A DNA stretch of 64,000 nt from Lingula anatina (lineage: Eukaryota > Animalia > Brachiopoda), in the NCBI GenBank assembly GCA_051362555.1, contig CM120645.1, positions 1,240,001-1,304,000 on the forward strand, written 5' to 3'. This document shows, in pieces, positions 243 through 52,860 of the stretch. The position numbers and the translations under genes are program-made. The notes under the pieces were generated by a model. It was not told the DNA's origin. It searched no databases and was given only the letters and a program-made list of their open reading frames with translations. How positions within the stretch are numbered: the stretch's first letter is position 1; each line of letters opens with the position of its first letter.

Positions 243-344
243 GCAGTTATCGAATCTCCAGAAAAACAGCTAACTTTAAATGAAATCTACAACTGGTTCC
301 AAAACACTTTTGCATTCTTCCGGAAAAATGCTGCCACCTGGAAG
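243..344 (+). CDS. FoxP: FoxP forkhead exon A1 ([34 protein letters not shown])
   Basis: ttgcag acceptor at 241-242, AAG|gtttgt donor at 345; 102 nt, phase 0/0, no stops. Confidence 0.93.
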
Positions 345-974
345 GTTTGTATGGTGACATAGCTAGGGAATGTGACACAACATCATGGTGGCAAGCCATG
401 GACAGCAGCGCAATCACAAATCTCAGCTACTGCAATGCAGATTGTATCCTGTTGAGCATATTTGATCAGTTAACCCCCACCCCCCACCCTCATCTCCCAC
501 CCCAACACATCTCCATGACCCTCATTTTTCAGAGGAGGGGCATGGTTGGAAACTTTGAATGAAATTGGGAAGAAAGGTGATTGTATGCTGTACTGAACTG
601 CCACCTTGATGAGTTATTAACTGTATATTACATGTGGGTTTTATTATTACTTTAATTCAGGCCATAATAGACTCTCCTAACAAACAGTTAACCCTAAATG
701 AAATATACCAGTGGTTCACAAACACATTTTCTTACTTTAGAAGAAATGAGGCCACATGGAAGGTAAAACAAATTCTCATTGTAGATGTGTTCTTGAGTTT
801 ATTTGCTTATATTTGCCCATGAATTAATATATCGCATTGTAATTTTTGGAAAAATTACAAATTAGGAAAAATTGTTGTGCTAATCAGAAAGATTTCATTT
901 TCTTAAAATTTGAGTCAAAAGAGGAATATTTATTGATATGTTATATGGTGTATGTATAGAAATAATTACACTGC

Positions 975-1014
<40 letters not shown>

Positions 1015-4000
1015 ATCACTAGAAATTTGATAATTCTAAGTGCATATTAAAAGCGAAAAAAAATTAGTGCACATTTTAATTTTTGAAAGTAAAATTAATT
1101 GACTGACTTTATCAGGTAATCTTATGAAATTGAATATCTTGCCTTGAAAAAAAAGGAAAATACATAATTATATGTTACTGTTTGAAATATATATCACAGT
1201 ACAGTTTTAATTACTTATCTGAAACAAGTAACTTGGGGTTTAAGGGAAGACCATAAAACAGTGAAGGTACCTTAAAGAGAAACATATCTGCTGTTTATGA
1301 AATTATGTTTATGAGTGTGTCATATTGTGTAGGTATATCAGTCATTTCTCAGCTGTGGTTCACCACTAGTGCCCTCTAGTGGTAGGTAATAGCTGAGCTG
1401 TCTCCACTGTTACTCCCCCTTGCTGCAGTATCCTCATAGCCATGAGGAATGGAGGGTAAGGCTACATACCATAACATACACAGCAGATATTTTTCCTTAA
1501 GGTACCTTTATTGTATGTTTATCATTATATGGTCAACCAAAATCAATGATTTTCCGGTATCAAATAAGATTGAAATGTTGATGATTGTATCGCTGTTTCA
1601 CTGTTGACCTTATTTTCCTCTCAACCAATCAGAATGCAGTACGACACAACCTCAGTCTACATAAGTGCTTCATGCGGGTCGAGAATGTCAAAGGCGCCGT
1701 CTGGACTGTCGACGAAATTGAATTCTACAAACGCAGACCACAAAAAATGAGTGGGTACGTCAGGCCATGGTGTGGTGAACATGCTTCTATGACATCATTG
1801 CTGTGTCTTTTTTTTTCTAGGGACCCTGGCAAAATGGCTTATTAGATGACAGATACTCTGATTTATTTATTTTTTTTTTGTTCAAAAGATGAATTTGAAA
1901 TTTATTATAACATGCACTTTTGGATAGGTTGCTTTAAGCAATTGGCGGAAATTTAAGACATTGCAGTTGTGATACGATTCTTGATAAAAAAACATTTTTC
2001 AAAAACACATGTGATCCAGATTATGTGTCATCTAATCAGTGTATGTTGCAGACTGGTGTTACTCTGTCCACCCCCTGCTCTGCTGTCTAGACCAGGGGAG
2101 GGGGTGGGAACTGCTATTTAAGCTGATCACACTGATGATGTGTTGTTGTTTATTTTTTATATTTCCTCACACTGCACAGAATGCTATACGCACCAATCTG
2201 TCTCTGCATAAATGTTTCGTACGGTACGAGGATGATTTCGGCTCCTTTTGGATGGTGGATGATATAGAATTTATCAGGCGCCGTCACCTTACCAGGGGGA
2301 GGCCCCGAAAATCACATGACTCCAGCGATTTCACTTACGCACAGTAAGGCCCTTTTCTCCACTAACATACTCTTACTACTCTAGCCTGGCTGTAGATATA
2401 CTAGTCTAGACTCTGTGCACCATCACCAAAAATATTACTTCCTCCAGACCCTGGAGAGCTTTGCCCAAACCATGGTTTTGATAATATCCCCTCCCCCCTC
2501 CTCCCCTTCAGCACCCACCCCCCTCATTTTAACCCTTTGAGTTCCAAACACCATGTTGGGAATCTGGTTTTGTAAATCCCCGCTACTTTGCAGCTTCAGT
2601 TTTGTTTTAGAATGAAGAAAAAGTTGTTTTGCCTTTTTTTTCTGCGGTATCTTGATGTTGTTGTTGTTGTTGCCAACTTGCTTGCTCAGCCTGATGGGAT
2701 TTCACCCAGTCCCCCAACCCACAAGCTTTCTATCTCTAATTTCATTAACATTGGAGTTTTTTCAGTGGATTGAAGATGCATGTTTAATTTTCGTATATTT
2801 TATTTTTGCAAAGATCTTTATTTTGGCTGTTTTGTATACTCTTTTAACCTTCATTCCTTTGCTTGATGGCTCTAATTTTATAATAAATGATCATGTGAAA
2901 ATCTGGGCTTCCTCCTAGAAATGATGGGGCATGCCAACGAACAGAGAAATCTCCACAGATACAATTGAAAGCGGAACTTTTATGCTTGACAGTCAGTGTT
3001 TTTTCTGTAGGAATTCATGTTTTTGTTTATCAGTCCAAATAGTTTTCATATAGGTTAATAGGCTGGAAAAGTCTGCTGATGGTTTAGTAGGTGCATGCCT
3101 TTTATTTATTTATTTAAAAAATTAAGAAATGATTTTGCCATTATTCCTATAAGCCATCAGCCAATGGCAGAGCCTCTCATTACCATATTACCATGGTAAC
3201 GCCATCCCTGGCACATTATTGGTTACCTTCCGTCACATGACATGTTTGGTGGTGGTGGACTTTGTAGTGCATAGCAGTAGCATAGAAAGTTGTTTTAGGT
3301 AGACAATAGAGATGAAGTCAACAAGTCCATGGAAAAATGTTGTTAAATTCTTGAAGGAAAATTGTGTTGTATTATGATCAAAATACTATAAGAACATTTA
3401 TAGGTACTGAGTGTAGGTCATTGTAGTGAAGCTGATGTTGTCTTGTGGTTATATTCAATAAAAGATTGGATTCAAGTATGTTTATTAAAATTATAAATGA
3501 TGTTTGAGAATGACATGAGATTAGTATTGAGTGGCATTGACAAGCACTACAAGTTTCACCACCTGATTTTATTTATATGCCCTAGCATCAAAATCTACTT
3601 AATGTGATATGTACCTTGTTCATCTTGTTTAGAAACTGTTACTTTTGGATTTAAGATACGTACTGAAAATTTTTATAGGAAGAGTTTGAGACAGAATCAA
3701 TATCTGTAATGATGAATTTGAAGGTTATGATGCTAGGACAATTTATGTAGTAATATAGCAGTTAGTCACCATGTTAGATGTAGGAAGGTGTAATTAGAAC
3801 TGGGACAACTTTAACTGAAAATAATCAGTGCTCATCTGGCAACCAGTGGGTCACCTGTGACCTCATTTAGACAATTTGTGGTTTAAATTAGCTCTGTTCT
3901 GAATGCGCTGTCAGTGGTAGATGTTGATTGGAAAGCAGTTGTACTAGAAATACTGCTAATGAAAGAAAATAAGAAATCAAAATCAACGGCTTTGAATGCA

Positions 4001-6787
4001 GATTTACGATGTTAAAAGATTATGATTCTGTGGGAAAAATAATATTGGTGTGGCAGAAATATTTAATTGTTTTTCTTCAGTACAAAGACATCAGATTTTT
4101 TTTTTTTTTTGTCCAATAGATGGAGGAAATTCTAGAACAGTTCCAGTTTCTAATTTTACATCTCTGTCATGACTTATGAATCGAGGAAAGACTGAAATAT
4201 GCGATTGATTCATATATTAAAGGTTACTTAGTTACTGTAGTTTTTAAGACTAGTGCTTTTATATGTTATTGAGTCTCTATGTTTTGAAACATGAAGTCAG
4301 TGAATTTTGAAAGTACATCCAAAGGTTAGTTTGCCAGATGAGCACTGTTTGCCATCTTATGTTGTCAACAGTTTCAACTTCCTTGAAAGTAAAAAACTTT
4401 TTTGTCACGGAAATTTTTACTCAGTAGATGTTTAATTTGATAAAGTATGTTACTATTTCCCCCATACCACAACATTTACAATTTTATAACTTTGAAGACA
4501 TTTGGCTACAGATAGATTCAAAAACCTGAAGTGTGATATTTGACAGAATCTTAACTTGTTGACAGCATAACAGCCAGCCAGTTGTGTGTTATAGATAGAT
4601 TTTAATTGAAGAATATGTCTTGAACGATTTTGAAGTAGAGGAACATCACCCAATATTTCATTGATCAGGATACCTTTGAAATAATCCAATGTTGTGAACA
4701 GTGCTCAGTTGCTGTACAATGGTCAGTGTTTGTTCCTGGAAACATGACCAGAAGCATGACATGAGAAACATGACAGAAAACATGACATGGGAAACATGTC
4801 ATGGGAAACATCATGGGAAACATGGTGTCCATGAGCTAATATCATCACTAGTCAAGTATATTATGTATATTATATGAACAGTCTTGAAATGGCACTAGAT
4901 TCTTTGTACCCAAGTGGTCCAAAACATTCTTTGAATAATGACACTTTTCGTGAAATGAAGTATAGGCAGCTCTTCTGGTCATGTTTTCAGGTGAACAATA
5001 TTTTAGTAAACACTGATGATAAACAGAGTTCTTATTGACTTAGAGACTTAATGAGAAGAGTTATGTGCTGCATTTTTATCCACCAACTGTGGGCCTTGAT
5101 CACTTGAATGGGGATTTCATGCTTGTATGTGACTCCAAGGAAACAGGACAATATTGTAATTCTTCGGAATCATAGTGTGTGGCTCTTGTTATTTAGTCTT
5201 TAAGTCAGAAACAACTCTGTTTTATCGTCTTATCTAGAGACATAGGCATTTGTTGATGTTGTGTACATGTTGTTATTTTATCATCAAAGTGATGTATGGT
5301 GTATGTTACTCTTTCAGCAATATCCAGATCAAGAGTCCATCATTACAAAATCATCCTCAGTTATATGGCGAGAGCCTGAACGCCAGTCTTAGGGTGAGTT
5401 TTCACACACACGCACTAGCATGCATCTTTTAAAAAAAAGTTACATGAATAAAATCTATTACTGGACTTAACAATCTTACTCTGATTTATGATGTCACATC
5501 TCATGATGTCATGTCAGTGACTTATGTCAGTCTGGAACTATTCTCGTCCTTGTTAAATAATCTGTACAGGACATGGGACAGTGTGATCAGATATGGTCCA
5601 CACATGTTGTTTCTCGATAATGAGGCAATGCACTGCGTGTCGTAATTGTGGATCATACTACACAGTTATGTGTTGTCGCAGTTGAAAATTAATGTCCACA
5701 GTTTCAGCATAACATTTCTCTCCAAAAAAAAAAAAACTCCATAAATACAGTTGCTCATATTTATTATCCATAGTCTTGGCATCACATATCAGTATGTCAA
5801 AGCCAGAGGCCAGTACCTAACAGAAAAGTGACCTGAGATTTGATTTAGACAACAAACTTGAATGGTAATAATTGTGTTTACAGGCTGCTCTTGCAGAGAG
5901 CAATTTCCCATTGTTAAGTAATTCTGGCAGCAGTATGGATGAAGTGGAGGATCTGTCCATATCTCGTCAGACCAGCCAGAACGTAGACGACACTGAGGGC
6001 TTGGCCACAGAACCCTTAAGGTAAAGTGGATATCTTTAATTAACAGCTGTCCTGGATTATTTCCTGAAACGGGATATTAAGGTGTAATATTTGTGTCCCC
6101 ATAGCCCCCCCCCCCCCCCCCCCCATACAGAGCTGGGTACCTTCAGTCTTGCAATTTTTGAGAATTTTATTAAAAGGTCCTCTTTCATCTCTTGTCATTC
6201 TGCAAAATATTTTTAATTCTTCTTTTGATTTGCACTGATGAACTGATTGTTTTTGTGCAATTTTTCCCCAATTGTCATTTTGATTTCTTAAAGTAATACT
6301 TTATCTTTTTCTTGATAACAGTGAATCAGAAGACAGTAAAAAATCAGAAGACAAGCGTCCAGAATACATGGCTGGAAACTCTCCCAATGATGTCAGCATG
6401 GAACAGGCTGTTTACCATGGCAACGCTGTATACAGCCAGCACGGGGAATCCATATACCACCATGGTGAGCCAGAGGATGCCGGGCTGGGGAAACCCTTAC
6501 TAGCCTCTCCTATCAGACCCAAGGAAGAGGACGGCAGTGAGAGATGCGGGCAATACAATGGCGAGAGTTCTCCTCCGCCCAGAGTCAGTGTGGAAGGGAC
6601 AACTGTATGTCATGGGAGCACTATGTATACACATCACAGAGAGGCTGGCTATCACCATGGTGATGCTGAGGATGCTGGGATGGGGAAGCCTCTGATGGTT
6701 TCCATGGCAACGCCAGATGAGGCAGACATGATGAGGCCCCTGTCGAACCCCAGCATCAATTCACATTCCATAAGTGGAGACACCTAA
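243..6787 (+). CDS. FoxP: FoxP forkhead transcription factor, 5'-partial. Exons: [243-344 or 661-762], [1633-1754 or 2180-2343], 5318-5393, 5884-6020, 6322-6787
   Basis: FoxP-diagnostic peptides [26 protein letters not shown], [28 protein letters not shown] and LNASLRAALAES. All introns are GT-AG with consistent phases (0,2,0,2), ending in TAA at 6785-6787. Upstream exons lie outside the window. Confidence 0.97.
661..762 (+). CDS. FoxP: FoxP forkhead exon A2, duplicate of A1 ([34 protein letters not shown])
   Basis: ttcag acceptor at 659-660, AAG|gtaaaa donor at 763; 102 nt, phase 0/0; 25 of 34 residues identical to A1, with many synonymous differences. Confidence 0.92.
1264..1508. mobile_element. 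MITE-like foldback element in the FoxP intron between the A and B exon pairs
   Basis: Imperfect terminal inverted repeats of about 35 bp: aaggtaccttaaagagaaacatatctgctgtttatg versus the reverse complement of catacacagcagatatttttccttaaggtacctt. No clean TSD. Confidence 0.65.
1366..1384 (-). promoter_or_regulatory. CTCF-consensus-like site
   Basis: The minus strand reads taCCACTAGAGGGCACTag, close to the CTCF core CCAC(C/T)AG(A/G)GGGC(G/A)CTA. Motif match only. Confidence 0.45.
1633..1754 (+). CDS. FoxP: FoxP forkhead exon B1, canonical ([41 protein letters not shown])
   Basis: atcag acceptor, GG|gtacgt donor; 122 nt, phase 0/2; splices in frame to the exon at 5318. Confidence 0.95.
2180..2343 (+). 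CDS. FoxP: FoxP alternative forkhead exon B2, FOXP1-18b / Drosophila isoform-B type ([44 protein letters not shown]...)
   Basis: gcacag acceptor at 2178-2179. The CA|gtaagg donor at 2344 gives 164 nt, phase 0/2, the same as B1. Read-through instead meets TAA at 2345-2347. Confidence 0.93.
3826..4347. mobile_element. Non-autonomous DNA element (MITE) in a FoxP intron
   Basis: Perfect 17-bp inverted repeat cagtgctcatctggcaa (3826-3842) / ttgccagatgagcactg (4331-4347). No TSD seen. Confidence 0.6.
4739..4825. repeat. Short degenerate tandem repeat (gaaacatgac / catgggaaacatg units)
   Basis: Six to seven copies of a 12-15 bp unit containing gaaacat. Confidence 0.7.
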
Positions 6788-20150: not shown

Positions 20151-20287
20151 ATCTCTAGTCGCCATCATTGGAGCAGTTCTAGAGGAGAACTTGAGCAGAC
20201 GGCTACTTTCATTGAACGTTTCAGCTCGAAAAACAGAAATGAACGCTGTCTGACACTTCTGCTTTAACTCCAGGTTCGTGGACAACA

Positions 20288-21631
20288 ATGCAGTTTACGA
20301 CGATGCAAGGTTCGTGCTTCCAGGCCGCTCCCCCAGCACAGTACCAGTCCTCCCTCTACCGCCCGACGGACATGTTTGATTCCGCCATGAAGCTCCCACA
20401 CAGCCCCGAGCTCGGCGACGCATTCAGCAGCTGTCTCGGAATGAGCCGAGCTCCTCCGAGTTACTCGGAGTCCACGATGATCTGTGCTGCCTCCCCGCCA
20501 TTGCAGCCCATTCCAAACTCTAGCACGTCTTACTATAAGCTGGGAGGAGGCGGCGGCTGGAACGACTTCAACGTGTTCGGGACAAATTCTCCAGTGCTTG
20601 CAGATCAAAAACAGTCCTATTATGCAGACTCGAAACCTGTGTCGGGAATACAGGGCTACGGGAGTGAGGTCTCTGTCGAACAGACACATATCCTCAGCAA
20701 TCCTGCACCGCCAGAAATGAAGACAGAAGACTGCAAGCACGAGACTTCCACCGCAGACGAACAGAACAGCGTAGCAGACGACACCCCGCAAGTGACGTCG
20801 ACTGAGAAAAATGGAGGCGACATTGCGTCTTCTGCTGTGGTTTCCAACGAAGGGAACGCGGGTAACGCCGAAGAGGAAGCTCTGCAATCTCTGGACAAAC
20901 CAGAGGAGAAGACTAAAGAACAACCCTCAGACCAAAAACCGCCCTTGTCTTACATCGCCCTCATTGCCAAATCAATTTTAGAAAGCGCGGAAAAGAGGCT
21001 GAGCCTGGGCTCCATTTATAACTGGATAGAGAAACATTTCCCTTATTTTAAAAACCGGGGCCAAGGGTGGAGAAACAGCGTCCGCCATAACCTCTCTTTA
21101 AATGACTGTTTTATTAAGGCGGGACGCTGTGAGGATGGCAAAGGCAACTACTGGAGCATCCACCCGGCCAACCTCCAGGACTTCATGCGCGGAGACTTTC
21201 GTCAGAGGCGCCGTTCCCGTCGCCGTGGGAGAAAGAAGGACTGCGAATTCGCCATGCATAATGGTTACATGGGCGGTCCAGGCGCTCCCCTCTCTCCGTC
21301 CGTCTCCTTCAACCCGGCAGCCGCCCTCAGCTCTATCTACTCCCCGTACACGGAGGCCGAGCGGCGTGCCTACCGGCTGGACGAGGTCCTCTTAAGGCAA
21401 AGTATGAACAACCCTTTCATGAAGTGGTACCACAACGGCGTCAACAACACAGGGTATTCCAACACGTGCTCTTTGAACAACGCGCCCCCTCCGCCGCCTC
21501 CCTCGTGTAACTCCGGGATGTACAACCCTCCGCCACCGTGTAATAACCAGTGGCAGACCCCCAGCTACGCAGACACCAACTCCCAGTCGCTCTACCCCCT
21601 GGGGTCGTCATTCTCCAGGTTTGTTAAATAA
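20288..21631 (+). CDS. FoxQ2: FoxQ2-class forkhead transcription factor, intronless CDS, 447 aa
   Basis: Forkhead domain KPPLSYIALIAKSIL...RGQGWRNSVRHNLSLNDCFIKAGRCEDGKGNYWSIHPANLQDFMRGDFRQRRR. The LSLNDCFIKAGR, GKGxYWxIHPAN and DFxRGDFRxRR motifs are characteristic of FoxQ2. The paralog subgroup cannot be fixed by eye. Confidence 0.9.
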   Translation: MQFTTMQGSCFQAAPPAQYQSSLYRPTDMFDSAMKLPHSPELGDAFSSCLGMSRAPPSYSESTMICAASPPLQPIPNSSTSYYKLGGGGGWNDFNVFGTNSPVLADQKQSYYADSKPVSGIQGYGSEVSVEQTHILSNPAPPEMKTEDCKHETSTADEQNSVADDTPQVTSTEKNGGDIASSAVVSNEGNAGNAEEEALQSLDKPEEKTKEQPSDQKPPLSYIALIAKSILESAEKRLSLGSIYNWIEKHFPYFKNRGQGWRNSVRHNLSLNDCFIKAGRCEDGKGNYWSIHPANLQDFMRGDFRQRRRSRRRGRKKDCEFAMHNGYMGGPGAPLSPSVSFNPAAALSSIYSPYTEAERRAYRLDEVLLRQSMNNPFMKWYHNGVNNTGYSNTCSLNNAPPPPPPSCNSGMYNPPPPCNNQWQTPSYADTNSQSLYPLGSSFSRFVK

Positions 21632-31700: not shown

Positions 31701-33791
31701 CAAAGTCACCGTTTTTCAATGCTCTTAGACTTCAGGACATTTTTGCAGTGTCTTTAATTATCTTCTCTATATCTTTTCTCAAGCTATCCATCCATGGTGA
31801 CTCCATATTTGTCCAACGAAAAACCACCACGGTTCCTATTATATATTTCATTATATGTAATAATTATAAAGATACAGTATAACATACGGGTCAACTGTTT
31901 TAGGTACCTGGGCGTCTCTTCCATCGCAACAAGCCACGACAAGATAGAAAACAAGAACACCTGTAAGGGGTTACCTCTGGACACCCAGCAAGTACAGGTG
32001 TGTAAAAAACACCCAGATTCCATCCTGTGTATCAGCACTGGGGCTCGTCAGGGGATTTACGAGTGTCAGTACCAGTTTCAACACGAGAGGTGGAACTGTA
32101 CTACAACCAAGAACCAGACCGTCTTCGGAACGTTGCTCGATAGAGGTAGGACAAATGATTGTTTAATCTGCATATCAGTTAATCAATCAGTTATATTGTA
32201 AACCAATCACATAACCGATCAATAAACAAATCAATCACTCAATCAATCAATTAAGAAAATTTCAATTAATCAATTATTTGTCGCCCGCCGTGCTTACGAT
32301 TAATCATACAAATACCGTCAATAATTTAAACAGCGATTCAGTGACATCACCTCTTTGATTTTTTTCGACTTGAGATAGAAATAATGAGAAATGTGCCAAG
32401 GAAGATGAAGCAGGTTGCTGTTAAGTTGATGTTGTTTTGTTAAGTGAAGGAACGAGACCAGCTACACATACTATAGGTGTATGGTGACGCGTTCATTACA
32501 GACAAATTAATTGTCTATTTTATTATTATTTGAGATTCAAGTAGCAATTGGCCTCGTTGGCAAATAATTTCTTCTTTAAGAAACTATGCATTTCCATTTA
32601 TATTTTATCTGTTATCAGGATAATATTTAACTTAAGCATTTTTTGGCAAACTGATCTTATTTTACCCCTGATTTTTTTCACACTGACTAAAATTCCAACT
32701 CATCCATCTGTTCGAAGCCTTTGAAACTTTCAAGATGGCGGTCATTGTTTCCGCGTGCCCTTTTTGACAGAGAATTCTACAGAAATACCTTAACATCACT
32801 GATTTGTTATACAGCGTCTTTTATTATCTTTTCAACCCTAGCCGGCGCGGGCTTTGGTACGGCAAGTGCGAGAGAACGGCGCCGCCTTTCATCTGAAACA
32901 TAAAAAGACGACGAATGTTTGTGTGAATTAGACCCTAAACATGTGTGTTTTCTTCTGTCTGTTTTGCTTCAGTGTGTTTGTGTATGAGTGCTGTACCCGC
33001 GGTATACGAGATACGCCGTACGTAGCATGGGACACCATCATCAAAGGGTTGTTATATAAGTTATATGGCGCTTAAACGTTAAAAACACGCTGGGATGAAG
33101 TGATAGTTTCTTTGAGAAACGGGTGAAAGTTAATACCCAGCTTTGAAAACATACTCCTTTTACCACAGGAACTTTTTTTCATATAAATTGCTGGAAGTGG
33201 CGTAACTCTACCCCCACACAAAGATATCTTAGAAATAGAGACATGTTGGAAATTAAATAGCAATTAAGATATTGGCGTAAAGCAGCAAGTGAAACATTGC
33301 ATTATCTTGTAATTATATTAAGCAATTTCATTACGGGTACTCGCGAAACGCTTTCGTGACGGGACTTTTTTGAAGATAATTAACCCGTGATGTCGAATGC
33401 TAAGTGTTCATTAACGGAGTGAAATGACGGTCAAGACGTTCTTTTAACACGTAACTCAATGTATGATTACGTAAAGGCGCTAACGTGTTCGGTAAGAGGC
33501 ATTTCATTTAGTTAAATGTTAATAAATAGATCAATATGCATTTTTACTTCGAAGAAGATATTCTCAGGAGCCAGCACAATGACTTAAACAATCAGTATAT
33601 TTTATAGGGTAGTTTCACATTTGTAGGTTATGAAAGGATGGTTGGTAAGCATTACAGGCAGATGCTCTAAATTTCGTGAAAGCGTTTCCCCTTGATTTGT
33701 CTTTTGAGAATATTCAGTGCATTTCATTTATCATGAAATCATACCATTTCTGTAATTTTCACACACACACTGTCTCTCTCCCTCTCTCTTA

Positions 33792-33832
<41 letters not shown>

Positions 33833-36716
33833 TCACGGAAAATCCAATTTCAATAATCCGACTATTGTCCACTATCTGATATCTTTAACTTGGCGTGGTC
33901 CAACAGGAGTATGGCCAAACATTGCGAAACCGTTCTAATAGGATATTCACGTTTTTCAACTTGCCGCTAGTTGGTTTCTAGGGTGTATTTGAAGCAGCGA
34001 TGTCCCTGGGGGTTTTGTTACCTTCACCAATACCAGATTAGGATTAGCTTAAACGATGAGAGACATGAGAAGGATAGGTGTAATATCAACAAGATAATCC
34101 CGTTAATCCCTCGCGTGATAGGATAAGCTTTTAATTGTTTTATGAATCCCGGGTAGTTAATTAATTCAAGATATCTGAAACAGTTGCGTTGTTAAACGCG
34201 ATCTGTTGCCAGCATTGAAATTGTAACAAGTTAATCTGGTTGCTTTATGTTCAGCAGATAAATTATGGCGTTACACGACGTTTTGACACATCTTTCTTTG
34301 ATAACAACGTCTTAGAGTAAACTTGTTGGGCGAAATTAAAGCGGTGACTCTCGGATTCTACCTTTGGAGGTGACTTGATAGAATAAATAGACAAGAACCC
34401 GGCCAAAATAAACCCACGAACACTATATGGGTTAAAAAGGGGCTCTATATAATCAATTATACCAATCTTATTGTGACTCCGGGTTTTGGTTTTAAACCTT
34501 ACAATTTCCCACTCTTCCCATTTCAAAAACTCAACGAAACTCATCAAATGATTCATCGATTTAATTGGTCATTTCAAGACGCGATCCTTTCAACATCATC
34601 AGTAGCGCCACGCTTGCCTTGTTAGCTCCTGAAACCAAATGCCCCGCTTTTCAATTAAATTTAATTCAATTTCGAGATCTGGCGACCGCTCATTAACTCA
34701 GCGTAGTGATAGTCATTCAGGCCTCGCAGACATTTGGCTGATGACCGTGAAATAATTACGATGTGTGTGTTTCCCCCCAGAAACGCCCCACCGAGCGTTT
34801 TAGGACCATAAATTATAGCAGTGCGGAATTAATAAACGTGCAGGTCGTCAGGGGTCGAAGCAGTGTAAACACGAACGCTCATTTAAAGGTGTAATATTCG
34901 TATTTAAACACGGGTTCGGGTTACTGCAAGGTGTCATTGTTGCTACAGTGTCGACGTGGTAGACGCAAACATGAAAGTGGGGGTTTTGTCGTTCCCATAT
35001 TATAAACATGCTGGTAGTACCCTCTACCAAGGTGGCAGATTATATGGGAAAAAACGGGAAAATCCACATAGCCAAATGACTGTCTATTTATCTAGAGAAA
35101 TATCTGTGAATATCTGTGAAAAATCAATCTGTCGCCCTGGTAGAGGGTATGTTGGTAGTAATACGGTTTGAAGGGGAAGACGTCTCGCAGGAAAAGTTTT
35201 CTCTGTAAACAGCTTGCAGTAGTTTAAGAACGCGCCATAGATTTTCATCTATTATTAAAAAGAAAACTCTGTCATTTCTTTTTTAATGCCCAGTTTGTCT
35301 CTCAGGGAATTAAAAAATAGAATAGAACATCTTAGTAATTTCTGTTAGAATGTGATAGACGTTGTAAATGACAAATATTTCATTTATTTCGCAAGAGAAA
35401 TGCGTACAAATATATAACAGAACTTTGTGAATTATTAACCAGTAAACGAGGCGATAAAACTGGCATATCTTCGGCTATTCACTTGTAAATTTGGAAACAT
35501 TATAATTGACAGTTTTATATCTTCTTTTGGTATGTGATGGCGTAGCCAAGCAGAGGGAAAGTGTCTTATTTTTCAACATTATGTGTATTGTGCTTCAGTA
35601 CTTTAGTGCTAAATAGACGATTTGGCTTTTTAGACAACTGACGCCCTGTAGTATAAAACGGTATTTTGTCACATGAAGTCTGTTTTTTGGCGGTTCAAAC
35701 ATCAGTCAAGTACCTTGTTAAACCTGTTGGGTACATTTAGTTTTGTGCATTGTAACTTGTGGGTCACCAGAGCCGTTCAAGTTATGTATTTCAAGTTGGA
35801 ATCCTTTTAGGATAACTGAATTAAATTCAGTAAGTCCAAGAGTCAGTAAATGTTTAGAGGCCATGGAGTAAACAGGCAATAAAATGTTTCTCATCAAATC
35901 GCCCCCATTATCATTTACGGTCGTCATGATTGTGTGTCGTCGGTGGATTACACCCCACCTCTTCATTACACAACCAAGAACTCGATATCCTGTCACTGTC
36001 ACAGCACTGGAGTCACGGTAGAAATAGCCGCTACTCAACTCAGTTAAAAACTTTTTGAAAAGGCATTTTTTAAAAATTGACTCAGCTTTTAATTTTTACA
36101 TGCACCAAGTATGGCGGTGTTTCTACAAGGGCGGAAGGGTTGCAGTCATCAGTAAATTATATCGATAGCTATCTTTGGTGTTGTGTCACTCTTAAATTAG
36201 CGTCCGGTTTTTAATGTGGTATATTCAGTTGCCGCGTCGGCAACATCAAACAGGACGCGCAAGCCACCGTTTATTATAAGTGGACATCTTTTAAAGATTT
36301 TATCAAAGCGTTCGACACTAATTGTCCGTATCGCCGATCTTAATCTTTATGGTGGATGTAATTTTAGTGGTTCTGGGCATCCCTTACACGAGATGCCTTT
36401 AGGCGCAGAGACCAAGAACGCCGAGATAGGTGGCCTCAGGACTGTCACGTGGGTTGTCACGTGGTACACTTACAGCGACCACCGACGGTCCAACGCCCAT
36501 GAAGACTATAGGCCTATCATTTCCAAGGTGTGGTCGCCATTTAATGCTCGGTCATATCGTAGCCGCTAAACACGGGGAGATCTGCACCTAGGTTTGGTGT
36601 CTGTCCCCTGTTTGATGCTTGTTTCATGTGCCGCTTTGAAAGTTGAATCTTTACACTTTCTGTTTGTTTTAAAAAGCGATTTTATAAATACTACGTTTTA
36701 ACACAGAAATAAGTAA

Positions 36717-36774
<58 letters not shown>

Positions 36775-36842
36775 ATGAGAGGGACAGAGAAAGAAAGGGA
36801 TAAAATGTCTTGATGTTAAACCGCAATTCGACTAGTCGTCGA

Positions 36843-36916
<74 letters not shown>

Positions 36917-39900
36917 ATAGAAATGCACATTGCAGTAATAATAAAAAGAACAGGTGCAGTGTGACAATAGGTTATCTGTCTTCTAGTTTATCTTTCCACC
37001 GCTACATATTTGTCGCAAATTATTTTTACATGTCAGCTCTGTTTCTTATCTTTCCCCGACATTTGTGAAAGGACGATTCCTGTAAATGAGACGCTATTTT
37101 ACGTGTCATCGTGCAGTTATACACAATATCGTTTAAGTACGAATATCAAAATAACATGTCTCGAAAGGAGGTCAAAATATGACGAAGAAAACAAAATATA
37201 GCATGGGGATCAATCATTAAAAATTTAATGTCATAACACAAGGGACAAATATGCAAAATGGCATGTTCATTTAATTTTCATCCGTCAAAGTAAAATCTGA
37301 AAGAGTCGAGAGGCGTTACACGAGGTCATATCCCATGTGTAAATATCAGACAAGTCGCCAGTACAGCAACATGCCACCTGAGTCAATGCAGTGTAGGTGT
37401 GCAGAGACGATTTGCTTCTAGGAAGATGGCAATCTGTTTACATGGTGCTACTATGATGCTAAACAAAATTCTCTCAATCCCATTTTACTTGTGTGGTTGC
37501 ATTCTGTGTCATAATCCCCAATACCAAGTTGTAAAGCAGAAAAAAAACTGAAGGACATTAAGGTCTCACTAATAGATAATAAAAACACAGGAGGCAAGTT
37601 TTATAGCCAGTCAGACAAACATATTTTGCTGTACAAAAAGAGTCATTTTCTTGTACCTTCAAACCGCGACACTTTTTATCGTTATTGGAAATTATCAACG
37701 TGCTAATCAGGTGTCAAGCGTTTGTCGTCTGCCAAGTCTGTGTCGTCTGCTGCCAATATACCAGATCTCTTCCATCTTGAATTATACATTTCAAATGGAG
37801 GTTACAAGTTGCTCCCTCTTTGGGCGTGTTTTCCAGCTAAGTCGTAATTACTAAGGCTCCTCCTATGATAAGTAAGCCTAAACATGGCTGGGCGGGGTAG
37901 ACCAGGACAGCTGATAGCTAAATGCCGTACAACCGATTGATGTTCGTGATAAGTCACTGCCACGTATAAAAAATACATATACAGGACGAAATATTGAGAG
38001 TACATGACATGTTGTCGTTATTAGAAATGTGAAGTTCTTCTTTACGATAGTTGGTGCATATGACAAGTTATTTGTTAAAGATGTGACATGTGTCAAGTTG
38101 TGTTATTTGAGAGCGACATCTGGTGGCCCACAGTCTTTTTAGTATTCGAAGTTCTATTTTCTGAGTTATTTTCTGTCTGTAAACCTGTCAGCCTGCCTGT
38201 CCTTCTGTCTGTTTCTCTGAGTGACTTCATAACGTTCTTTCCCTCTTTCCGTCTGTCTGTCTGTCTGTCTGTCTGTCTAAAGCACTGCACGTGCATGTTT
38301 GCTAGTATGGCCGCCGCACAATTTAAACATTTTCTCCTGTACTACAGGCACGAAGGAGACAGCCTTCATCTACGCCATCTTGAGCGCAGGTGTCGTCCAC
38401 GCCGTGACGCAGGCGTGCAGCGCAGGTAACCTGACGGAGTGCAGCTGCGACCTGCGCCTCCAGGGCCAGAAGACGGAGGACGGCTGGACGTGGGGCGGTT
38501 GTAGCGATAACGTGGACTACGGCGTCTGGTTCGGGAAGACGTTCGTGGACGCTCCGGACACTTCCTCGCACAAGTCCGGGAGGAACGTCAGGATGCTGAT
38601 GAACCTGCACAATAATGAGGTCGGCAGAAAGGTATGTGGGGCTATCTATTTATTTATTTATTAATTTGTGTAGGACCGCTAAAATATTTTGATCACATTT
38701 AAATAATGTTTATTGGCTGTACACGTAGCGACCACTGTGTTACAGTCCGCAGTAGCCTATAGAAGTCCAGACATTGTTCTTTTGCTAATAAAATGCAACT
38801 TTTACCTTAAACAATATCAAAAGAAAGAACTGGGTATTGCAAAAAATGATAATAAAATAAAATAAAATAAAATAAAATAAAATAATATTCCACTTGCAGC
38901 ATGTTATGTGTACATATGTCGTTCAGATCACAGCTCAGGTGCCCGACAGGTGTGCATCTGTCTGTGTCCTTGGCGTGGCTCACTGGCCGTGAAAACTGAC
39001 GTCCACTGACACAGGTCACTCACCGCTCTGTCTGACCACTACTGATGTGATAACATTACTCACGGACATTGTGGTGACATTATATTTTAACGTGGACATG
39101 TCGGATATTATATTTTAACGTGGACATGTCCGATATTATATTTTAACGTGGATGTTGTCGGATATTGTTCTGAGACGTTTCGAATGACGTCATTTGTAAA
39201 CTGAAGCAGTGAGATAGTAGTCAGTACAGCAGGGTTCAGTTGAAAGAGACATAAAAATCTTAAGAAGTTTCAAAAAGTCGAAATTTAGATCCCTTATACA
39301 TTTAAATGCTTCAGTGAAACGCTGCCCTTCCTCTAAAAAACCTTTTTAAAGACTTTCGTAGTGCAAAGCAAGAAAATACGTTAAATACAAAATAATATTA
39401 ATAATAATGATAACAAACGAGGACGAACGAGTCGTGCATCTGAAAAAGAAAATAAATAAATAAATGTATTCATCAATTAATAAAAAGATAAACAAACGAA
39501 AGAAAAATACATCTGAAACTAAATGTCATTTTCTAGTCACCGTCGGACAACAAAAAATAAAAACGTATGGAATATTGTTGAATGAGGGCACTTGGACTGA
39601 TACACACTTGTCGTTCTGTTGTCTGTTATCATTTTAGACGTTTTCAGTGATTTCGACACATGACAATCGGTATTTTATCACTCAGCTGATGTGAAAAAGC
39701 GTGATAAAATTGACATGAACATCAGCACACGGCGTCATACGTTCCTGTCAGTTCATTGCAGATGAGACGGGTAACAGTACCGGGCAGCCATCTCGGCTTA
39801 ACGCCGTCAAAAGCGTGGAGAAAATTCCGGACGTGGTTCTACCACGCTTCACTTGACGAGATCGACGTTAACAACGTCTCAGCACAGCGACGCCGTGCGT

Positions 39901-40585
39901 CTTAATTAGTGCGTATTTGGAGCCCTGTGTTTTAGAGCATCGGAATGAATTATCGCTGGCATCGGTGTGGCTTAGAATGCAGCGTGAATTGTCTTGTTAC
40001 GCAGGGTATGCCGGATACGGCGCACGGACGCTGTCGGGGTTTGAAATGGTCTAGATCAACACAGCTATTAAAAAAGTGATCTTGTTTCAACACTGGATTT
40101 CTATCTATTTCTCATATTTTTGTTCTGGTCGTTTTTGGTATGATCTGGTATGACTCCTTGGTTTGAGAAACCATGGCACTTGTTGCGCCAAAATTTCACG
40201 GAGTTAAAATTAAAAAAAAAAAAAAACTTTATTGTGACACGGTATAAGACAACTACATGTATACCTTTTTCAAAGGCTGGTTTTAGAAGAAAAAAAGTCG
40301 CTGAGAACTGTTAGCCTGTTCAATGTCAGTATCTGTGCATGCAGTGATTAGTCGACTCTTCTCTTGGTATGCATTCACTTCTTAGTTCTTTCAAGAACTG
40401 ATGGGCTCGAGTTCTTTTGAATAGAGAGTACTTAAAACGATAATTGTGTTTTAATAGCACTTAGTTTCAGCTTTCCAGCCATTGGGTAGCTTCTATTTCT
40501 ATTTCCCCAGCAGCGGTCGCGAGAAACAGGTGACGATGAAGTTTTGTTTACTGATGTAACCACGCGCACACACACACACACACAA

Positions 40586-40626
<41 letters not shown>

Positions 40627-40955
40627 TACAAAACTACATAATCGGACGCATAATAGCCACAAATTAATCGTTTCAATGTTCTTTCTCCGTCATGTCTTTA
40701 AAGTGTCATCTATCATGTGTCCTCCTCTGACATACCGCGTCTTTTCCACGTTTGGAGGATAATAACTGTGAAGATTTTATTGACCTTTGGGTTGGTAGAC
40801 TGTCATTTTTGAAAACCTGTTTTGCTTTTTTTCTTTAAAGTAAAGGGAGGGATGGGAATGTTGGAGGTGAGTCATGCTTTAAATCTACAGGACACCTGCG
40901 ACGAGGGGATCCGTGTGAGAAGTATCATGTTTAAGGTGTGTGCGTGTGTGCGTGC

Positions 40956-40998
<43 letters not shown>

Positions 40999-43365
40999 CC
41001 TTATATTAGTTCATCAATTTGTGGCAAATAGTAAAACGTTTAACATGTTACTCTTTAAATAATCATAACGGAACTAACAGATGAGGTAAATAGTTCTATT
41101 TAGCTAAGTGAACTTGCAGTAGCTGGATAATTAATGGTTCAGTATTTTTTCCTCTCTGGTTGATTTGTCACTTTGCCGCTTTTCTTGCTCTTAGTACATT
41201 TTGGTAAGTTAGGACAATTTTATAGAAGTCCTTGTAATAAGATAATCTAAATAAAGTTTTAGTCTATCAATCTAAAAAAACCAATATAATCCAATATAAT
41301 CTATAAAAATTCACCACGTGTTATTACAATGTAGAGCATGTAGAGCGTCTGCTATGTATATAATTTTGAACTCAATAATTTTAGTATTTAAACCGTGCTG
41401 CTTAATATGAGGACTAACAGTACATCTAAATGAAAAAGAAGTAAATTTAAATGAAGAAAAAAGAGAAAATGTCAGTTGTTGATAATTCAGACCTCTCCCC
41501 CCCCCCCCCCAAAAAAAAAGGGGTCCTCCTCGAGTCTCCAGGTGGTATAGAAGTGGGTAGCAGGATAGGTTACAATGACCAGGTGAGCGCGAACGATGAC
41601 ACTTGATTTCTGACCAAGTTCGTTTGTTTTTCTTCGGTTGTGTAAATATTCTTTAGAGCGAAAGATACCTCCTCGAACTACACTCAAGGTGTCGGACTTA
41701 CGGAAGACAAATAACCTTTGAAGTGAAGAAGCTTTTATCACAAAGTTTAAGTTTTTTGCCAGAGCTGTGTTGAAAAAGTTGTGTTTTTGCGCGTGAAAAA
41801 AGTCTTGCAAACCTCTTTCGTCGTTTGTCACTTTGGCTGGGGTTTTTCTTAACAAATAAGCCAAGATGAAATTAGTTAACATATATAAATAACGATAGAC
41901 TCAACCTACTTTAGAAAAGTAAGAAAGTTTCTGTTTAATGACAGTGAAATGAACGCACTTCATGAGGTTTACCGGCTAAATTAGATTTCCCCCGGAAAAT
42001 AAGAAATTTCACGTATCATCTATCTATCCCTCTCTGCACTTGGATTCGACCTTTGGTAAAATTCATAAAGGTTGATTTTAGCTTAAAATGACTGGCTAGT
42101 CATAATAACAGCGATCATTTTCCTATAAGCTCAACATCAGAAAAAAAATTTTAAGGGATTTTAATAATTTGTGTAAATTTTTATAAGAAGCATCAGGAAC
42201 GCTCGTGAAAAATATTTAAGGGGTTTAATCATGTTAAAGCTGTATGTAAGGTTTTATAAGATGCTGTGGATGGCAAAAATAAGCACATTAAAAAAATCAC
42301 CCATGTGACCATGGGGTAAATAGCTAATAGTTCAGTAATACTGAAAAGTGTTGTGTTCTCACATCACACAATATAGGCCTACAAATAAAACCTACGTGAT
42401 CAAAATTCATCTTTTCATCTCAAAGTTTTTAGGGAGGTGGCGGGGGGTGGGGGATAAGGCTGCCCTTGCACTAATCCTTAAAAAATGAAGACGGGGGTAG
42501 GGGTAAGGGTGAAGATCGCCGTAGAACCCCCTGTAGGCCTATCAATGAGTGATTACCGTTACCACAACACCAACAGCCGATGTTGACACGAAGTCAACTC
42601 ATTTCGCGCCCTGTGCGATAAACTGAAATAATCTATTACTACAATCAGCGGTAATTTTGTTTACTCTCGTTTAGAAACTGCGGTTTATTATTTGGAAGCA
42701 AAATCGCCTCGAGCTGAGAAAAAACAACACTCGGATGGAAGGGCCTCTAACGTCCTCCAGGCGTTACGGAATTGAAGGATAAAAAGGGGAAGCCGTTCGT
42801 TGTGGGGTGAAGAAAGTTTTTCTAAACATATCCGTTTTGTATTAGAATATTGAAAGCCGTCTAGGTAGTGTCTGTGTCCGTACGAGTACTATGATTGTTA
42901 TGAATGTTGGTATTATAAGATGTCTGTCACATCAGGACCGATCTTCTCTTATGTGCATGTTCTAATATACCAACTTACGTGGAATTCATAGGACTGTGGC
43001 CAACACGCTCTATGATTTTGTATAAATTCGGAAGTCAAATTAAAGAAAGCGTCTGAAAACCACCCAATGTTTTTCTTTAATTCAGATTACTAGACTACAA
43101 GATACAGCTCTTTCTTGATTTTTTTGCGGATCAAATTGTGATGTCAATCTACGATACAGACTATGCAAGAGAACTCTCGACATACTAATGATTTTACCTC
43201 CTTTGCTCAATAAATAAATAAATAAATAAATAAATAAAACTGTAGTTATTAGTTTTAATATAAAGCGCCAATGATTAAACATTAGCCCACTCTCTCCAAA
43301 CTATTTCCTTTGAAAAACCGAGAAATTGTATATTTACTCCACCAACAATAAATTAAATTTTTATG

Positions 43366-43405
<40 letters not shown>

Positions 43406-45495
43406 GTATCACTCACTTACTTTGAAATAAGCCCGCAGGTGGACTTCGTGCCTTCCGCAGCTCGCAAAAATGTAACCGACAACAAATGAGGTGAAATCAA
43501 CTAAGAAACTGACAAGGGCGCGTGAATGTTTTTGGCGCATCTCTCAGAGTTCTTGCATTTTCGTTTGCCTGGTTAATCAGAGAAAGATTGATCTAGACTT
43601 CAAGTTAGTTAAGACCTTTTGGTGTTAAGAATTGTGTAGACTTTCTTGACTTGCCAAGATAATTTCCACCAGGTACAGTGAACAGAGCTAAACCGTAGAC
43701 AAAACTATTCGAGAAATAGGAAGTATAATTTTATTGGCACGTTCATCAGTTCATCTGAAATGGATACAACTGTGTGTGATGAATCACTAATAAACAGTAG
43801 ATTCTTGTTATTTGAGGAAAACCTGTCATTATTTCTGAGGGTATGTTGGTTATTTGTAGCTAAGTGATGCGGAAAAAATGTCTTCAAAAAAGACCCCGAA
43901 GTGGACAAAACCCACAGTTGTAATGATACCGTTTTGCGGTGGTTACGTAGACATACTATTGCCATCGGTCGTCGGAATGCGGCCTTGGAGATCGAAGGCA
44001 CGTAGAAAATACGATAAACAAAAGCATCTTTCGCGCGCATCGGTACGAAGTCAGGCTTACTGATCGTATCGTGTGAAATATTTCAATCGATTTCAAAGTG
44101 AAGAAACTATCCCTAAACCATTCGAGACTAACGTCTCATCTAACTCTGATAGCTTCTCTTCCTTCGATTACTTCCTCCTCGATTGCTCTTTTCAAATGGT
44201 AAAAGACAGACAATCTAATCGAGTAATAATAGATTGAAAGGTAGCGTTTAATAATTTCTTGACCAGGAGCTGCCTCCAGGCACCATTGTCGCAATGGGCC
44301 GACCATCTAGATGCTTCCTAATTAAACATCAACAGAAGCTGCGCCATTCCGTTTATTCCTTGTAATAAGAAAAGCTTAACTTTCCTTTGTGCTCTTGATT
44401 GACAGTTTGGTCTGCCATTGTTGCGCAGTTTTCATCAATTAAATCGTGGGGAATTTAATGCAGTCTATACTAAATGGAATAAATAACGCAGAGGCAGTGT
44501 ATCGGATACTACGTAGGTATTTAGTGCTGGGGGCGGGGGCGGGGGGGGGGGGAGACGGTGTGAAATTAGCAGTAAAATACAGTCATATGTGACAACGTCG
44601 CATACCTGGAGTACTTACCTATGTAACAGTTACACATTAAATGTGTGTATGTTTATGATAGATCACACTGATGATCACTTGATATTATTTCTGTAAATAT
44701 GCCTATGGGTGATCAGCTGTTGTGGTATGTGCGGGCAGAATTGGCTTGAGAATGGCTACTTTTAATTGTCAGTAAAGACAAAGTTTTTTATCATCTGCAG
44801 ACATTTTCGTTTCCGCACGAAACTCCTTTAAACTCGTTACACAACTGGTTGAAGTACCAAATGTTAAAGCGATATCGAATCCGGAGAGCTAGGAGATTAC
44901 ACGAAATCTTATCCTTTTTATTACTAGACTTAAAAAACCGACAAACAAACGGATAACTAAGATAAAAATCCACATTGCAATCTTAGACGAGGGATAGGTC
45001 CTGTAGTTCGGTGCAGGTAAATATTGTAGAGTTCAAAATTGACAGCCAACCTACCCTGAAAAAAATGAATGAAAAAATAATGAAACCATATATAAATGTC
45101 AGGATGATACCATATTTCATTTTTTTGAGCGCTCAGATATTTGTTTATTTTGTACATTTTGATTAAAAAGTATTTTTTGGTCACGAGGGGGCAACTTTTA
45201 GTGAAATTTAACAGAGCTAGCATTTTTGGCCGCTGATAATATCATTAGTTTCTGAAGTTAAAGAGTTCAGTACCTTAACTTAAAACGAGTTTTGGAAAAA
45301 AAAAAACGTTGTCATAGTGTTAATAGTTTCAAAATATTTTCTTATTTTCTTATGTAGATATTCGCCTAAAGTAAACACTATTTTCTCCAGTCGATATTTG
45401 TTGTTTTGTGTAATTCATTATCATTTCTTCGTGATCGGTTGTTTTCGGAGATTACAGATAAAAAATCACTAACTATTATAACGATTGATAATTTC

Positions 45496-45527
<32 letters not shown>

Positions 45528-47251
45528 ATCGTCCTCGTGTACCTCGACCATTGCCGAGTTCAAGCAAACGCCCTGTTATTTCGCCATTCTTTGTTGCTGG
45601 CATCCGTCATCCCCAGCCCAAGTTCCCCAGTAACCGGAGAGGTGCCGAGAACTGTCAAGTGTCGTATTGAAGAAGACACCAACTCTTGACGCCATTGTTC
45701 GGACTCGTCCCGGTGAAAAATTCCATCACCCGTTCCCCTCAGTCCTGTGGAGTGACGTCTATATCCGTGGATCATCTTAATCAAAAGGCAGAGATAGCTA
45801 AGACCGGGGAACAATTAGGCGGGTGAAATTTAATGGAAATATGGAGTAAACACGACTCCTCAACCCCGACCGCTGAAGGTGTCGGTTTAAATGAGATAAT
45901 ATGCCTGCTGGCGACAGCCACCGCGTGTTGTAACTGTTATATATAAAAACAGATCTGGTTTCTGAACCAAACAGATCGGAAGAAAGTTTTCAGTGTTGCA
46001 AGAAATTTTCCCACAGGTCCGTAAAAAAACACACACAAACTTCTAAAGAAAATGTTTTGGAAACAGCAACAAATGGTAAAGAAGATACCAACATACTGTA
46101 ATGTACGGAACGCGGGAGAGACGCGTTCCTCGCAGTCCAAATCGTCAAAAATGTTAACTTAGGTATCAGTTTTAGGTGAACGCGTGTTTGTATCTTAGTT
46201 GCTGCCTGCCAGAACGTTAGGTTGTGTATTAAAGCTGAGGTGTTAACGTGTGTATAATACTTGCTCGTATCGCCAAAGCAAAGGCATACGCTTAAGTATT
46301 CGGGAGCTCGTGCGTCTTCTCTTGATGTTTGATTCCTTTCAAACATTTGCCAAAAATGGGTTTAGACATTTGTACTGATCAATTTGATTGTGTTATTTTC
46401 TCTCTTATAAGTGAGTAAGACAAAATAAAAATAGACAAAAAGAGCTACCTCAGTTTAACTACGTGGTTTATCTATTATTCATTCATTGGTTTATTTATCT
46501 GACAATAAGATACAATTCCATTGTGCTATGATACAGAGATGGCAAGTAACCGATAAGTCCAATAAAATACAGTATTTTAGCGAATACGGCCTCTTGGTGC
46601 AACAGAAATCATTTTACAACCGATCAATGATATTTTCATCCACTAATAAATAAAAGTTGGTAAAATAATTGGTCGATGCAGACGAATTTTCAACATCCTT
46701 TTGTAGTAAAACTTTATATTCTCTTCGGAAATCATTCATCATTCTTGATGTAAAATATGAGATTTCTTTTCTTTTTTTCATTGCAGGCTATAGTGAAGCA
46801 GATGAGGAGACAGTGCCGTTGCCATGGAGTTTCAGGCTCATGCGCAGTAAAGACATGTTGGAAAGGACTGCCACCTTTCCGCCAAATCGGAAACTATCTC
46901 AAAACCAAGTACGAACACTCGGTGCAGGTGGCGCCACGATCAAAACGCAAACTGCGCAGGCGCGAGCGCGTCAAAAGGAAAGTGCCTATTCCTGTGGACA
47001 TTCTGGTGCATTTGCACCGGTCGCCGAACTTTTGCAGGGCAGACGCGAAGCAGGGGATTCCCGGTACAAGAGGGAGGATGTGTAACAAAAACTCCCGGTC
47101 ACAAGACAGCTGCGACCTGTTGTGCTGCGGTAGAGGTTACAACACCCAAGTGAAGCGCCATTCAGAAAGGTGTCACTGTAAATTCGTATGGTGCTGTTAC
47201 GTTAAATGTCAGACGTGCGTTTCTCAAGTGGACATTCACACGTGTAAGTGA
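28493..47251 (+). CDS. Wnt16: Wnt16, 4 exons: 28493-28572, 31904-32145, 38348-38631, 46787-47251 (356 aa)
   Basis: Signal-peptide exon ending in WM; Wnt cysteine pattern [23 protein letters not shown] (acylation serine), [20 protein letters not shown]. The segment [35 protein letters not shown] matches the Wnt16 subfamily. Introns are GT-AG in phases 2,1,0; total 1071 nt. Confidence 0.93.
28702..28750. repeat. (AAT)n microsatellite, Wnt16 intron 1
   Basis: About 16 units. Confidence 0.95.
29971..30052. repeat. Imperfect (AAC/AAT)n microsatellite
   Basis: Directly visible; it generates the spurious poly-Asn ORF at 29956. Confidence 0.9.
31230..31481. mobile_element. About 250-bp MITE, possibly PIF/Harbinger-like, in Wnt16 intron 1
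   Basis: Imperfect TIRs ggtctcattcccaatgaaatta / tagttccattgggaatgaaccc; flanks tga / taa resemble a decayed 3-bp TSD. Confidence 0.6.
33791..33831. repeat. (CA)n(GA)n compound microsatellite
   Basis: Directly visible. Confidence 0.9.
36721..36913. repeat. (CT)n(GT)n ... (CA)n-poly(A) microsatellite cluster
   Basis: Directly visible. Confidence 0.9.
39077..39166. repeat. 28-bp minisatellite, about 3 copies (atattatattttaacgtggacatgtcgg)
   Basis: Tandem copies visible in Wnt16 intron 3. Confidence 0.85.
40567..40624. repeat. (CA)n microsatellite
   Basis: Directly visible. Confidence 0.9.
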
Positions 47252-48780: not shown

Positions 48781-49214
48781 TTAGGAGGACTGTAGACATT
48801 GCACTATCTTATCCCAATCCTCCATTTCAGTTCCAATACTATCGGTCGTCTGCTTGAGAGAGGAACAGCCGATAGATGGCGTTGCGCGGGCAAGTCTTGG
48901 GACAGGAATGGCAGTAATTTGGCACTTATTCTCTTCGTCAATTTTAGTAATGAATCGATATGCACTTATCCGTTTATTTTCGATAAATTCTTCCACAATG
49001 CGGTGATACGATTCCCAACAGTCCGTTTCATTCTGTAAATAATTATATATACAGGATGATATAATAGTTTAAGTTTCGTGGAAGTTTTATGGTGATCAGT
49101 GTGTGAAGAAACGCTTTTCTACATAAACATTCTAGACTAGGAATCGAAGATACACGGATATCCCATTTATTGCTAAAATAAACGTTGCTGGTGGGCGTAC
49201 TTGTATCTCACATG

Positions 49215-49245
<31 letters not shown>

Positions 49246-49254
49246 CAAAGAAAT

Positions 49255-49293
<39 letters not shown>

Positions 49294-52051: not shown

Positions 52052-52860
52052 CACCTTTGAATTCCCCTCGCTCCTCTGTCTGAAGTTTTAAGTCGGTATT
52101 GGTTATATGTTAATTGTTTGATCGTCATCTATGCGGTAATATGTATATATATATTACAAACGAAAGAAATGGCCCAAGAAACAGCGGGAAGAGAGTGGTA
52201 CGGGTTGTGAAATGCAACAAACGGATATGACATTTTGATATTAAAGTTTTTTAAAGTTGTTATTAAGTTTTTAAATAAAGTTTATCGCCAACTTTTGAAA
52301 GTGTTCTGTAGATTTCATTTCAAATGGTCAAATTCACGGTACGGAACAGGTTGGCGGTGTCCCTAGCAGGGTGGTAAGATAAAAGTTGATAAGGATGTTT
52401 CAGTATTAAAAACTATACACAAACTTAAATGCCACAAATCTACAGTGAATTCTTTCCAATTATTTCGCAACTAAAAGTTGGATGCCCCAGTTGGTATTAG
52501 AAAAGAATTAATATTAGTTATTATTCTAAAAGAGATCTAGATATAAAGAACATTCACTACATACTAATTAGCTACACATCTACATGTGTACATGTGCAGG
52601 CCTACGAGCTTTCTAGACAATAATTTAGAAATAACTGTTTATCTTAACAATATAGGGCTACAAAAGCATGTTTTATCTGCGTAATGCGAGTAATATTTAC
52701 CTCATTCAAACCGACGATCCAATGTCTGTCTTCAGAATTGACGACACAAGTTGACAACAGTAAGGCCATGAGTTTATAACAAGTAGTCTATAGAGCTAGA
52801 TTTCTTTTTATACGCGGAAACTGAAACTTCACGATTGCCATTAGAAACGCAAGTCATAAT

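Follow-up and report, generated by a model that had tools for sequence, protein, structure and literature searches.

Mutually exclusive duplicate exons in the first half of the FoxP forkhead domain of the brachiopod Lingula anatina

The question raised by this locus is whether the forkhead domain of a single FoxP gene is put together from two pairs of duplicate exons, and how many versions of the domain the gene then makes. The window analysed was a stretch of 64,000 nt from Lingula anatina (contig CM120645.1, positions 1,240,001 to 1,304,000), and FoxP exons 5' of those described here fall outside it. Four forkhead exons with intact splice sites and open frames, reported in an earlier note, were all found on the forward strand. 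Exon A1 (243–344) codes for the end of helix 1 through the start of helix 3 and its duplicate, exon A2 (661–762), has the same length and phase (102 nt, phase 0/0). Exon B1 (1633–1754, 122 nt, phase 0/2) codes for the recognition helix and wing in canonical form, with His554, and exon B2 (2180–2347) for an alternative recognition helix with Thr554. Each exon is bounded by AG and GT, and all A and B introns are of the GT-AG type. The earlier description of B2 as an intact exon of 164 nt (2180–2343, phase 0/2) also stood, with the refinement that the reading frame continues past the donor to a stop codon at 2345–2347, so that B2 may end at either place. All four exons matched the Pfam Forkhead profile at the expected positions (14–48 for A, 49–82 for B), and the domain was nearest to FOXP1-4, with FOXP1, 2, 4 and 3 as top PDB matches and FoxP as the name of all named protein matches. 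Downstream, B1 was joined to a common coding exon at 5318–5393 (joint from 1754 to 5318 in 4/4 runs), then to a second at 5884–6020 (joints, including that from 5393, in 4/4 runs) and finally to the last exon, which is coding from 6322 to the stop at 6787 and in which read depth extended into the 3' UTR. This last exon (6400–6700, + strand) contains an internal peptide repeat of two HHG..EDAG.GKPL units, and reads of study P3 diverged from the window at many sites in the same region.

Other genes were also noted in the window. Three Wnt exons (Pfam wnt) lie at 31758–47251 on the + strand and may be Wnt16-like, and a 959-residue open frame without a Pfam match lies at 49208–52087 on the − strand. 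An intronless forkhead gene at 20243–21631 (+ strand, Pfam Forkhead 1e-33), 13 kb downstream of FoxP, had relatives with mixed database names and is possibly FoxQ2III. In the available part of Gattoni et al. (PMC12828049), FoxQ2III adjoins FoxP in chordates, and brachiopods and molluscs are the only protostomes in which it was found.

Use of the A exons was determined from raw RNA reads of the same species, of which seven of nine runs were mapped (X5 and X6 were left out) at 6–30% of each run; the listing of splice joints left out those with fewer than 3 reads a run, and the two mates from a single fragment could each be counted. Joints between A1 and B1 were present in all seven runs (X1 8, X2 9, X3 2, X4 4, X7 8, X8 3 and X9 4; 38 reads in total) and joints between A2 and B1 in four (X4 4, X7 9, X8 12 and X9 2; 27 reads in total), with none in X1, X2 and X3. 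On the other side, an upstream exon whose end reads PPFTYASLIR was joined to A1 by 38 reads in 6 runs and to A2 by 13 reads in 3 runs (X4 rows not included), so that 38 reads skip A2 and 13 skip A1. Neither a joint between A1 and A2 nor a joint skipping both was present in the seven runs, joints with fewer than 3 reads a run being unlisted. Thus, both exons are spliced between the upstream exon and B1, each skipping the other, as claimed for a mutually exclusive cassette; the counter-cases, that only one A exon is ever spliced or that both are always included together, do not describe these reads. A1 and A2 are a real, expressed, mutually exclusive pair of homologous exons in the FoxP forkhead.

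Use of the two exons was strongly skewed between studies. The ratio of A1 to A2 was 19:0 in study P1 versus 19:27 in the others (Fisher p 3e-6), and 14:0 versus 16:21 when only distinct read starts were counted (p 2e-4). Regulation of the choice by tissue or stage is something that we only infer from this skew, which could also reflect population differences.

Exclusion of one A exon by the other does not depend on frame-shift decay, which was ruled out as a cause since inclusion of both adds 204 nt and keeps the frame. Inclusion of both B exons, at 286 nt, breaks it, so decay can police the B choice and cannot police the A choice. Steric exclusion is unlikely as well, given an intron of 316 nt between A1 and A2. 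From the lack of a frame constraint and the length of this intron, A exclusion likely rests on splicing factors, which would enforce the choice, perhaps helped by an RNA duplex that loops out A2. A candidate arm of such a duplex was predicted directly 3' of the A1 donor (351–389, + strand) and its partner in the intron between A2 and B1 (1308–1366, + strand). The energy of this pairing, −35.0 kcal/mol, was matched by 0 of 200 shuffles, the pairing having been selected once 15 region pairs had been scanned. No matching selector was found 3' of A2, where 77 of 200 shuffles were as good, nor a similar duplex in three loci of other animals described below (L039, L045 and L046; 62, 56 and 66 of 100 shuffles as good, respectively), and overall RNA structure across 200–900 was no better than that of shuffles (z −0.43). 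The predicted loop-out duplex is therefore put forward as a candidate, a lead only. Pairings of a G-rich tract at about 2090–2120 also beat 10 of 10 shuffles, yet this tract is of low complexity and belonged to one of the 15 region pairs, and it was set aside.

As had been claimed, the B exons correspond to the bilaterian FoxP switch already described (A/B isoforms of Drosophila; vertebrate FOXP1 exons 18/18b, Gabut et al. 2011 as covered in PMC11701043). Lying in tandem and each coding for the second half of the forkhead, they occupy the position of that pair and show its change of His554 to Thr, and B2 is near-identical to the B2 exons of insects and molluscs. In the accessible text of Santos et al. 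2011 (PMC3002244), the B pair is traced across Bilateria, with prediction in annelids and molluscs, and the preceding exon is treated as constant; in contrast, that exon is here a mutually exclusive pair that alters the hinge and not the recognition helix.

The claim that two choices at each of two positions give four forkhead domains held in part. In the seven runs, B2 had no listed joint at either end (joints with fewer than 3 reads being unlisted) as opposed to 65 joints between an A exon and B1, so two of the four combinations, A1-B1 and A2-B1, are shown and those with B2 are without joints. Evidence for B2 came from read depth. In run X2, a discrete block on the sense strand started in the B2 acceptor bin, with a depth of about 4 over the exon, none in 1901–2100 and zero over A2, and extended beyond the B2 donor as far as about 2500 without a joint to 5318. 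The presence of B2 depth without A2 depth in this one run implies the combination A1-B2, with B2 serving as last exon and ending at the stop described above. Depth in run X8, on the other hand, spanned the intron before B2 and resembled that of unspliced RNA. A real A pair might exist without a free two-by-two choice: if B2 is rare, serves as a last exon or goes with only one of the A exons, this gene would yield two main forkhead domains and, at most, a third in a minor role. We give this reading almost, but not quite, an even chance. The lack of B2 joints, the depth in X2 running past the donor and the pattern in X8 all argue for it; against it are the small fraction of each run that was read, with its threshold for joints, the discrete X2 block pointing to A1-B2, and annotated isoforms of Lineus, Liolophura, Octopus, Biomphalaria and Haliotis, in which an A2-type exon is joined to B2.

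What the A choice might change in the protein was considered from the nine residues that differ between A1 and A2, which correspond in FOXP2 numbering (2a07 alignment) to 517, 519, 522, 532, 535, 539, 540, 543 and 545. A1 has Ala539, Phe540, Lys543 and Ala545, an annelid-like type, and A2 has Ser539, Tyr540, Arg543 and Glu545, the type of molluscs, nemerteans and bryozoans. Two of these positions, 539 and 540, form the hinge, at which Ala-Phe of A1 is as in human FOXP3 (PDB 3qrf) and Tyr of the A2 Ser-Tyr is as in FOXP1/2. In the portions of Santos et al. 2011 available, residues 550, 553, 554, 557 and 573 are the base-reading ones, and a requirement for domain swapping is placed at 539; the base-reading residues sit in the B exons, outside A. 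According to the available sections of PMC8508939, Pro at 39 (Ala39Pro) abolishes the swapped FOXP dimer, and Tyr40, which is Phe in FoxP3, when changed to Phe lowers the dissociation constant of FoxP2 about tenfold. By analogy with this effect, the A1 form is predicted to be more dimer-prone than the A2 form, a tentative prediction that we rate somewhat below even. The A pair would then tune forkhead dimerisation, and the B pair likely sets DNA preference, an altered DNA motif being known, according to a review, for the human FOXP1-ES form. In the FOXP proteins covered by that portion of PMC8508939, such hinge variants distinguish paralogous genes of vertebrates, whereas here they would be splice-switched within one gene.

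The hinge difference may nevertheless be small, since Phe540 also occurs in Glu545-type exons (Macrostomum, Babylonia) and Tyr in one FoxP3 entry (7tdw). Both A exons could also be kept while their proteins are functionally near-equal and the nine changes are tolerated drift. We regard this as unlikely, although the base-reading residues all lie in the B exons, several of the nine changes are conservative and a single copy suffices in many lineages. Each A type holds its residues across phyla, use of A1 and A2 differs sharply between studies, and two of the changes are at hinge positions known to set dimerisation, all of which speak against near-equality.

The distribution of the two A types among other animals was examined from proteins, annotated isoforms and genomic loci. 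Searches with the A2 protein gave molluscs and nemerteans at the top, all with Glu545, and those with A1 gave mostly arthropods; no match to either query exceeded 89% identity. A search with the nearest relative, P0050, recovered FoxPs with a different A exon, marked by Phe540-Lys543, two of them from Owenia and Capitella, and these two residues are common to A1 and the Owenia and Capitella models. With the FoxP exons 3' of the forkhead, P0050 scored best, followed by Lineus, Tubulanus, a chiton and octopus, with Owenia and Capitella lower, and the exon at 5884–6018 as query found no relative. The 18 isoform clusters that were read had one A type each (Glu545 in molluscs, Lineus and Watersipora; a deuterostome type in Lytechinus), and none held both types within one annotated isoform set. 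Three models with repeats of the A exon were also seen. The FoxP model of the copepod Eurytemora carolleeae (P0121) has two tandem A-like exons, the first divergent, which may reflect a duplication of its own or a gene model that has been fused. In P0223 (Armadillidium) and P0122 (Odontomachus isoform X22), the stretch between A and B1 contains short, incomplete copies of the end of the A exon.

Comparison with genomic loci, suggested earlier as a check, revealed the pair in a second lineage. Among the best 80 of 221 loci, from metagenome contigs, three (L039, L045 and L046) contained two A exons in the same order as in Lingula anatina, with a Lys543-type exon first (two residues from that of Capitella) and a Glu545-type exon 630–780 bases on, both flanked by AG and GT. 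These loci reach neither the upstream exon nor B1, are closely related and were therefore counted as one lineage, which by likeness is annelid-like. Each of the 27 of 80 loci that span from the upstream exon to B1 had a single A exon, of the Lys543 type in 6 (clitellate-like), the Glu545 type in 4 (bryozoan-like) and other types in 17. Some features of individual loci were noted in passing. The second exons of the three paired loci (L039 2968–3069, L045 1215–1316 and L046 1125–1226) have Glu-His at 542–543, with loss of both basic residues, and Lys539, changes that may weaken DNA binding. Clitellate-like loci (L019, L040, L057, L065, L067, L069, L072-L074 and L077-L079) have two divergent kinds of B1, likely paralogues, one with Cys replaced by Phe in a wing strand. 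In bryozoan-like loci L006, L042, L043, L048 and L068, the A exon is not preceded by its intron, which could be one way in which the first copy is lost.

The age of the duplication was addressed with trees of A exons, all of which rest on 34 columns. Without constraint, a tree of 46 exon rows put A2, together with the second exons of L039 and L045, among exons of molluscs, nemerteans, bryozoans and Macrostomum (93/90, bootstrap unsettled), and A1 and annelid first exons fell outside that group in an open fork with ecdysozoans. Single tests with four long rows removed rejected neither a clade of A1 with A2 (p-AU 0.19) nor one of the L039 pair (p-AU 0.25). When spiralian rows were held together, in a constrained tree that leaves out 16 of the 46 rows as long or near-duplicate, the best tree had one old duplication, and two independent duplications lost 13.7 log units (p-KH and p-SH 0.005); three of the four trees tied, which makes the AU value of this comparison unreliable. 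These trees favour, though without proof, a history in which the A exon duplicated once, ahead of the divergence of these phyla, after which different copies were reciprocally lost or went under-annotated. The A pair thus likely arose once, in an early spiralian, with later loss of one copy in many lineages; we infer that clitellate-like loci have retained only the first copy, and that bryozoan-like loci, together with every annotated isoform examined from molluscs and nemerteans, have only the second.

Independent duplications here and in the annelid-like lineage, with convergence of residues, are improbable by comparison. They are allowed by the unconstrained AU tests, the copepod model suggests that the A exon may duplicate repeatedly, and A1 keeps Asn at 532 and Ala at 545, positions mostly occupied by Gln in annelid first exons. 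However, the order of the exons is identical in both lineages and so are their diagnostic residues (Asp/Glu522, Phe540 and Lys543 in the first exon; Asn522, Tyr540 and Glu545 in the second), the joint constraint is costly, and the synonymous sites of A1 and A2 are near saturation.

Divergence between A1 and A2 likewise fits an old duplication under selection. The exons are identical at 75 of 102 nt and 25 of 34 residues (pS 0.725, pN 0.152, dN/dS about 0.07), the repeat is limited to 240–346 and 658–764, with likeness ending at the splice sites, and no alignment was obtained between the introns beside A1 and those beside A2. Variants among the reads of A1, A2 and B1 were synonymous in 3 of 3 cases, and the second exons of L039 and L045 differ by 10 synonymous codons and 1 replacement codon. 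The claim of an old duplication under purifying selection is borne out by the saturated synonymous sites, the low dN/dS and this 10:1 ratio. That the pair is an assembly artefact, a second haplotype or a decayed copy can be dismissed, since even in a highly polymorphic animal with many synonymous differences in reads a nucleotide identity of only 74%, flanks that do not align, splicing of A1 and A2 within the same runs (including X4, in which 47 of 48 reads match the window at >=99%) and occurrence of the pair in other animals are not what these explanations predict.

In its general features, the A pair resembles the mutually exclusive homologous exons catalogued in PMC8373072, which in the available part arise by tandem duplication and include one FOXP1 event; the A exons are likewise tandem, equal in length, of the same phase, old, under purifying selection and spliced one or the other. 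It differs in that two adjacent pairs here lie within one DNA-binding domain of 88 residues, and no such case in a Fox gene was found in the literature searched. The novelty claimed for the A pair also held, within limits: no description of a duplicated first-half forkhead exon in FoxP was found in openly accessible literature, absence from print not being proven, and the accessible portions of PMC11998571, PMC9539403, PMC4077281, PMC8373072 and PMC11701043 do not mention it. As a whole, we consider it probable that A1 and A2 are a mutually exclusive pair of single early-spiralian origin with a predicted role in tuning forkhead dimerisation, alongside a B pair that likely determines DNA preference. 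A further-reaching history is possible but more doubtful than not, in which the spiralian ancestor had two independent forkhead splice switches, one between monomer and swapped dimer and the other between DNA motifs, that gave four regulators, and annelids and molluscs each lost the copy that is annotated in the other.

Research on FoxP genes, from flies to humans, concerns neural development and learning, and stem-cell targets are rewired by the single splice switch known in the DNA-binding domain. A second switch, in the adjoining exon and at the domain-swapping hinge, offers a natural pair of variants for study of the role of FoxP dimerisation in vivo, and would allow up to four DNA-binding domains from one gene. 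If the duplication is old, trees built with FoxP forkhead sequences of annelids and molluscs partly compare paralogous exons, and work on spiralian models that relies on a single isoform for its gene models, probes or knockouts may miss half of the proteins.
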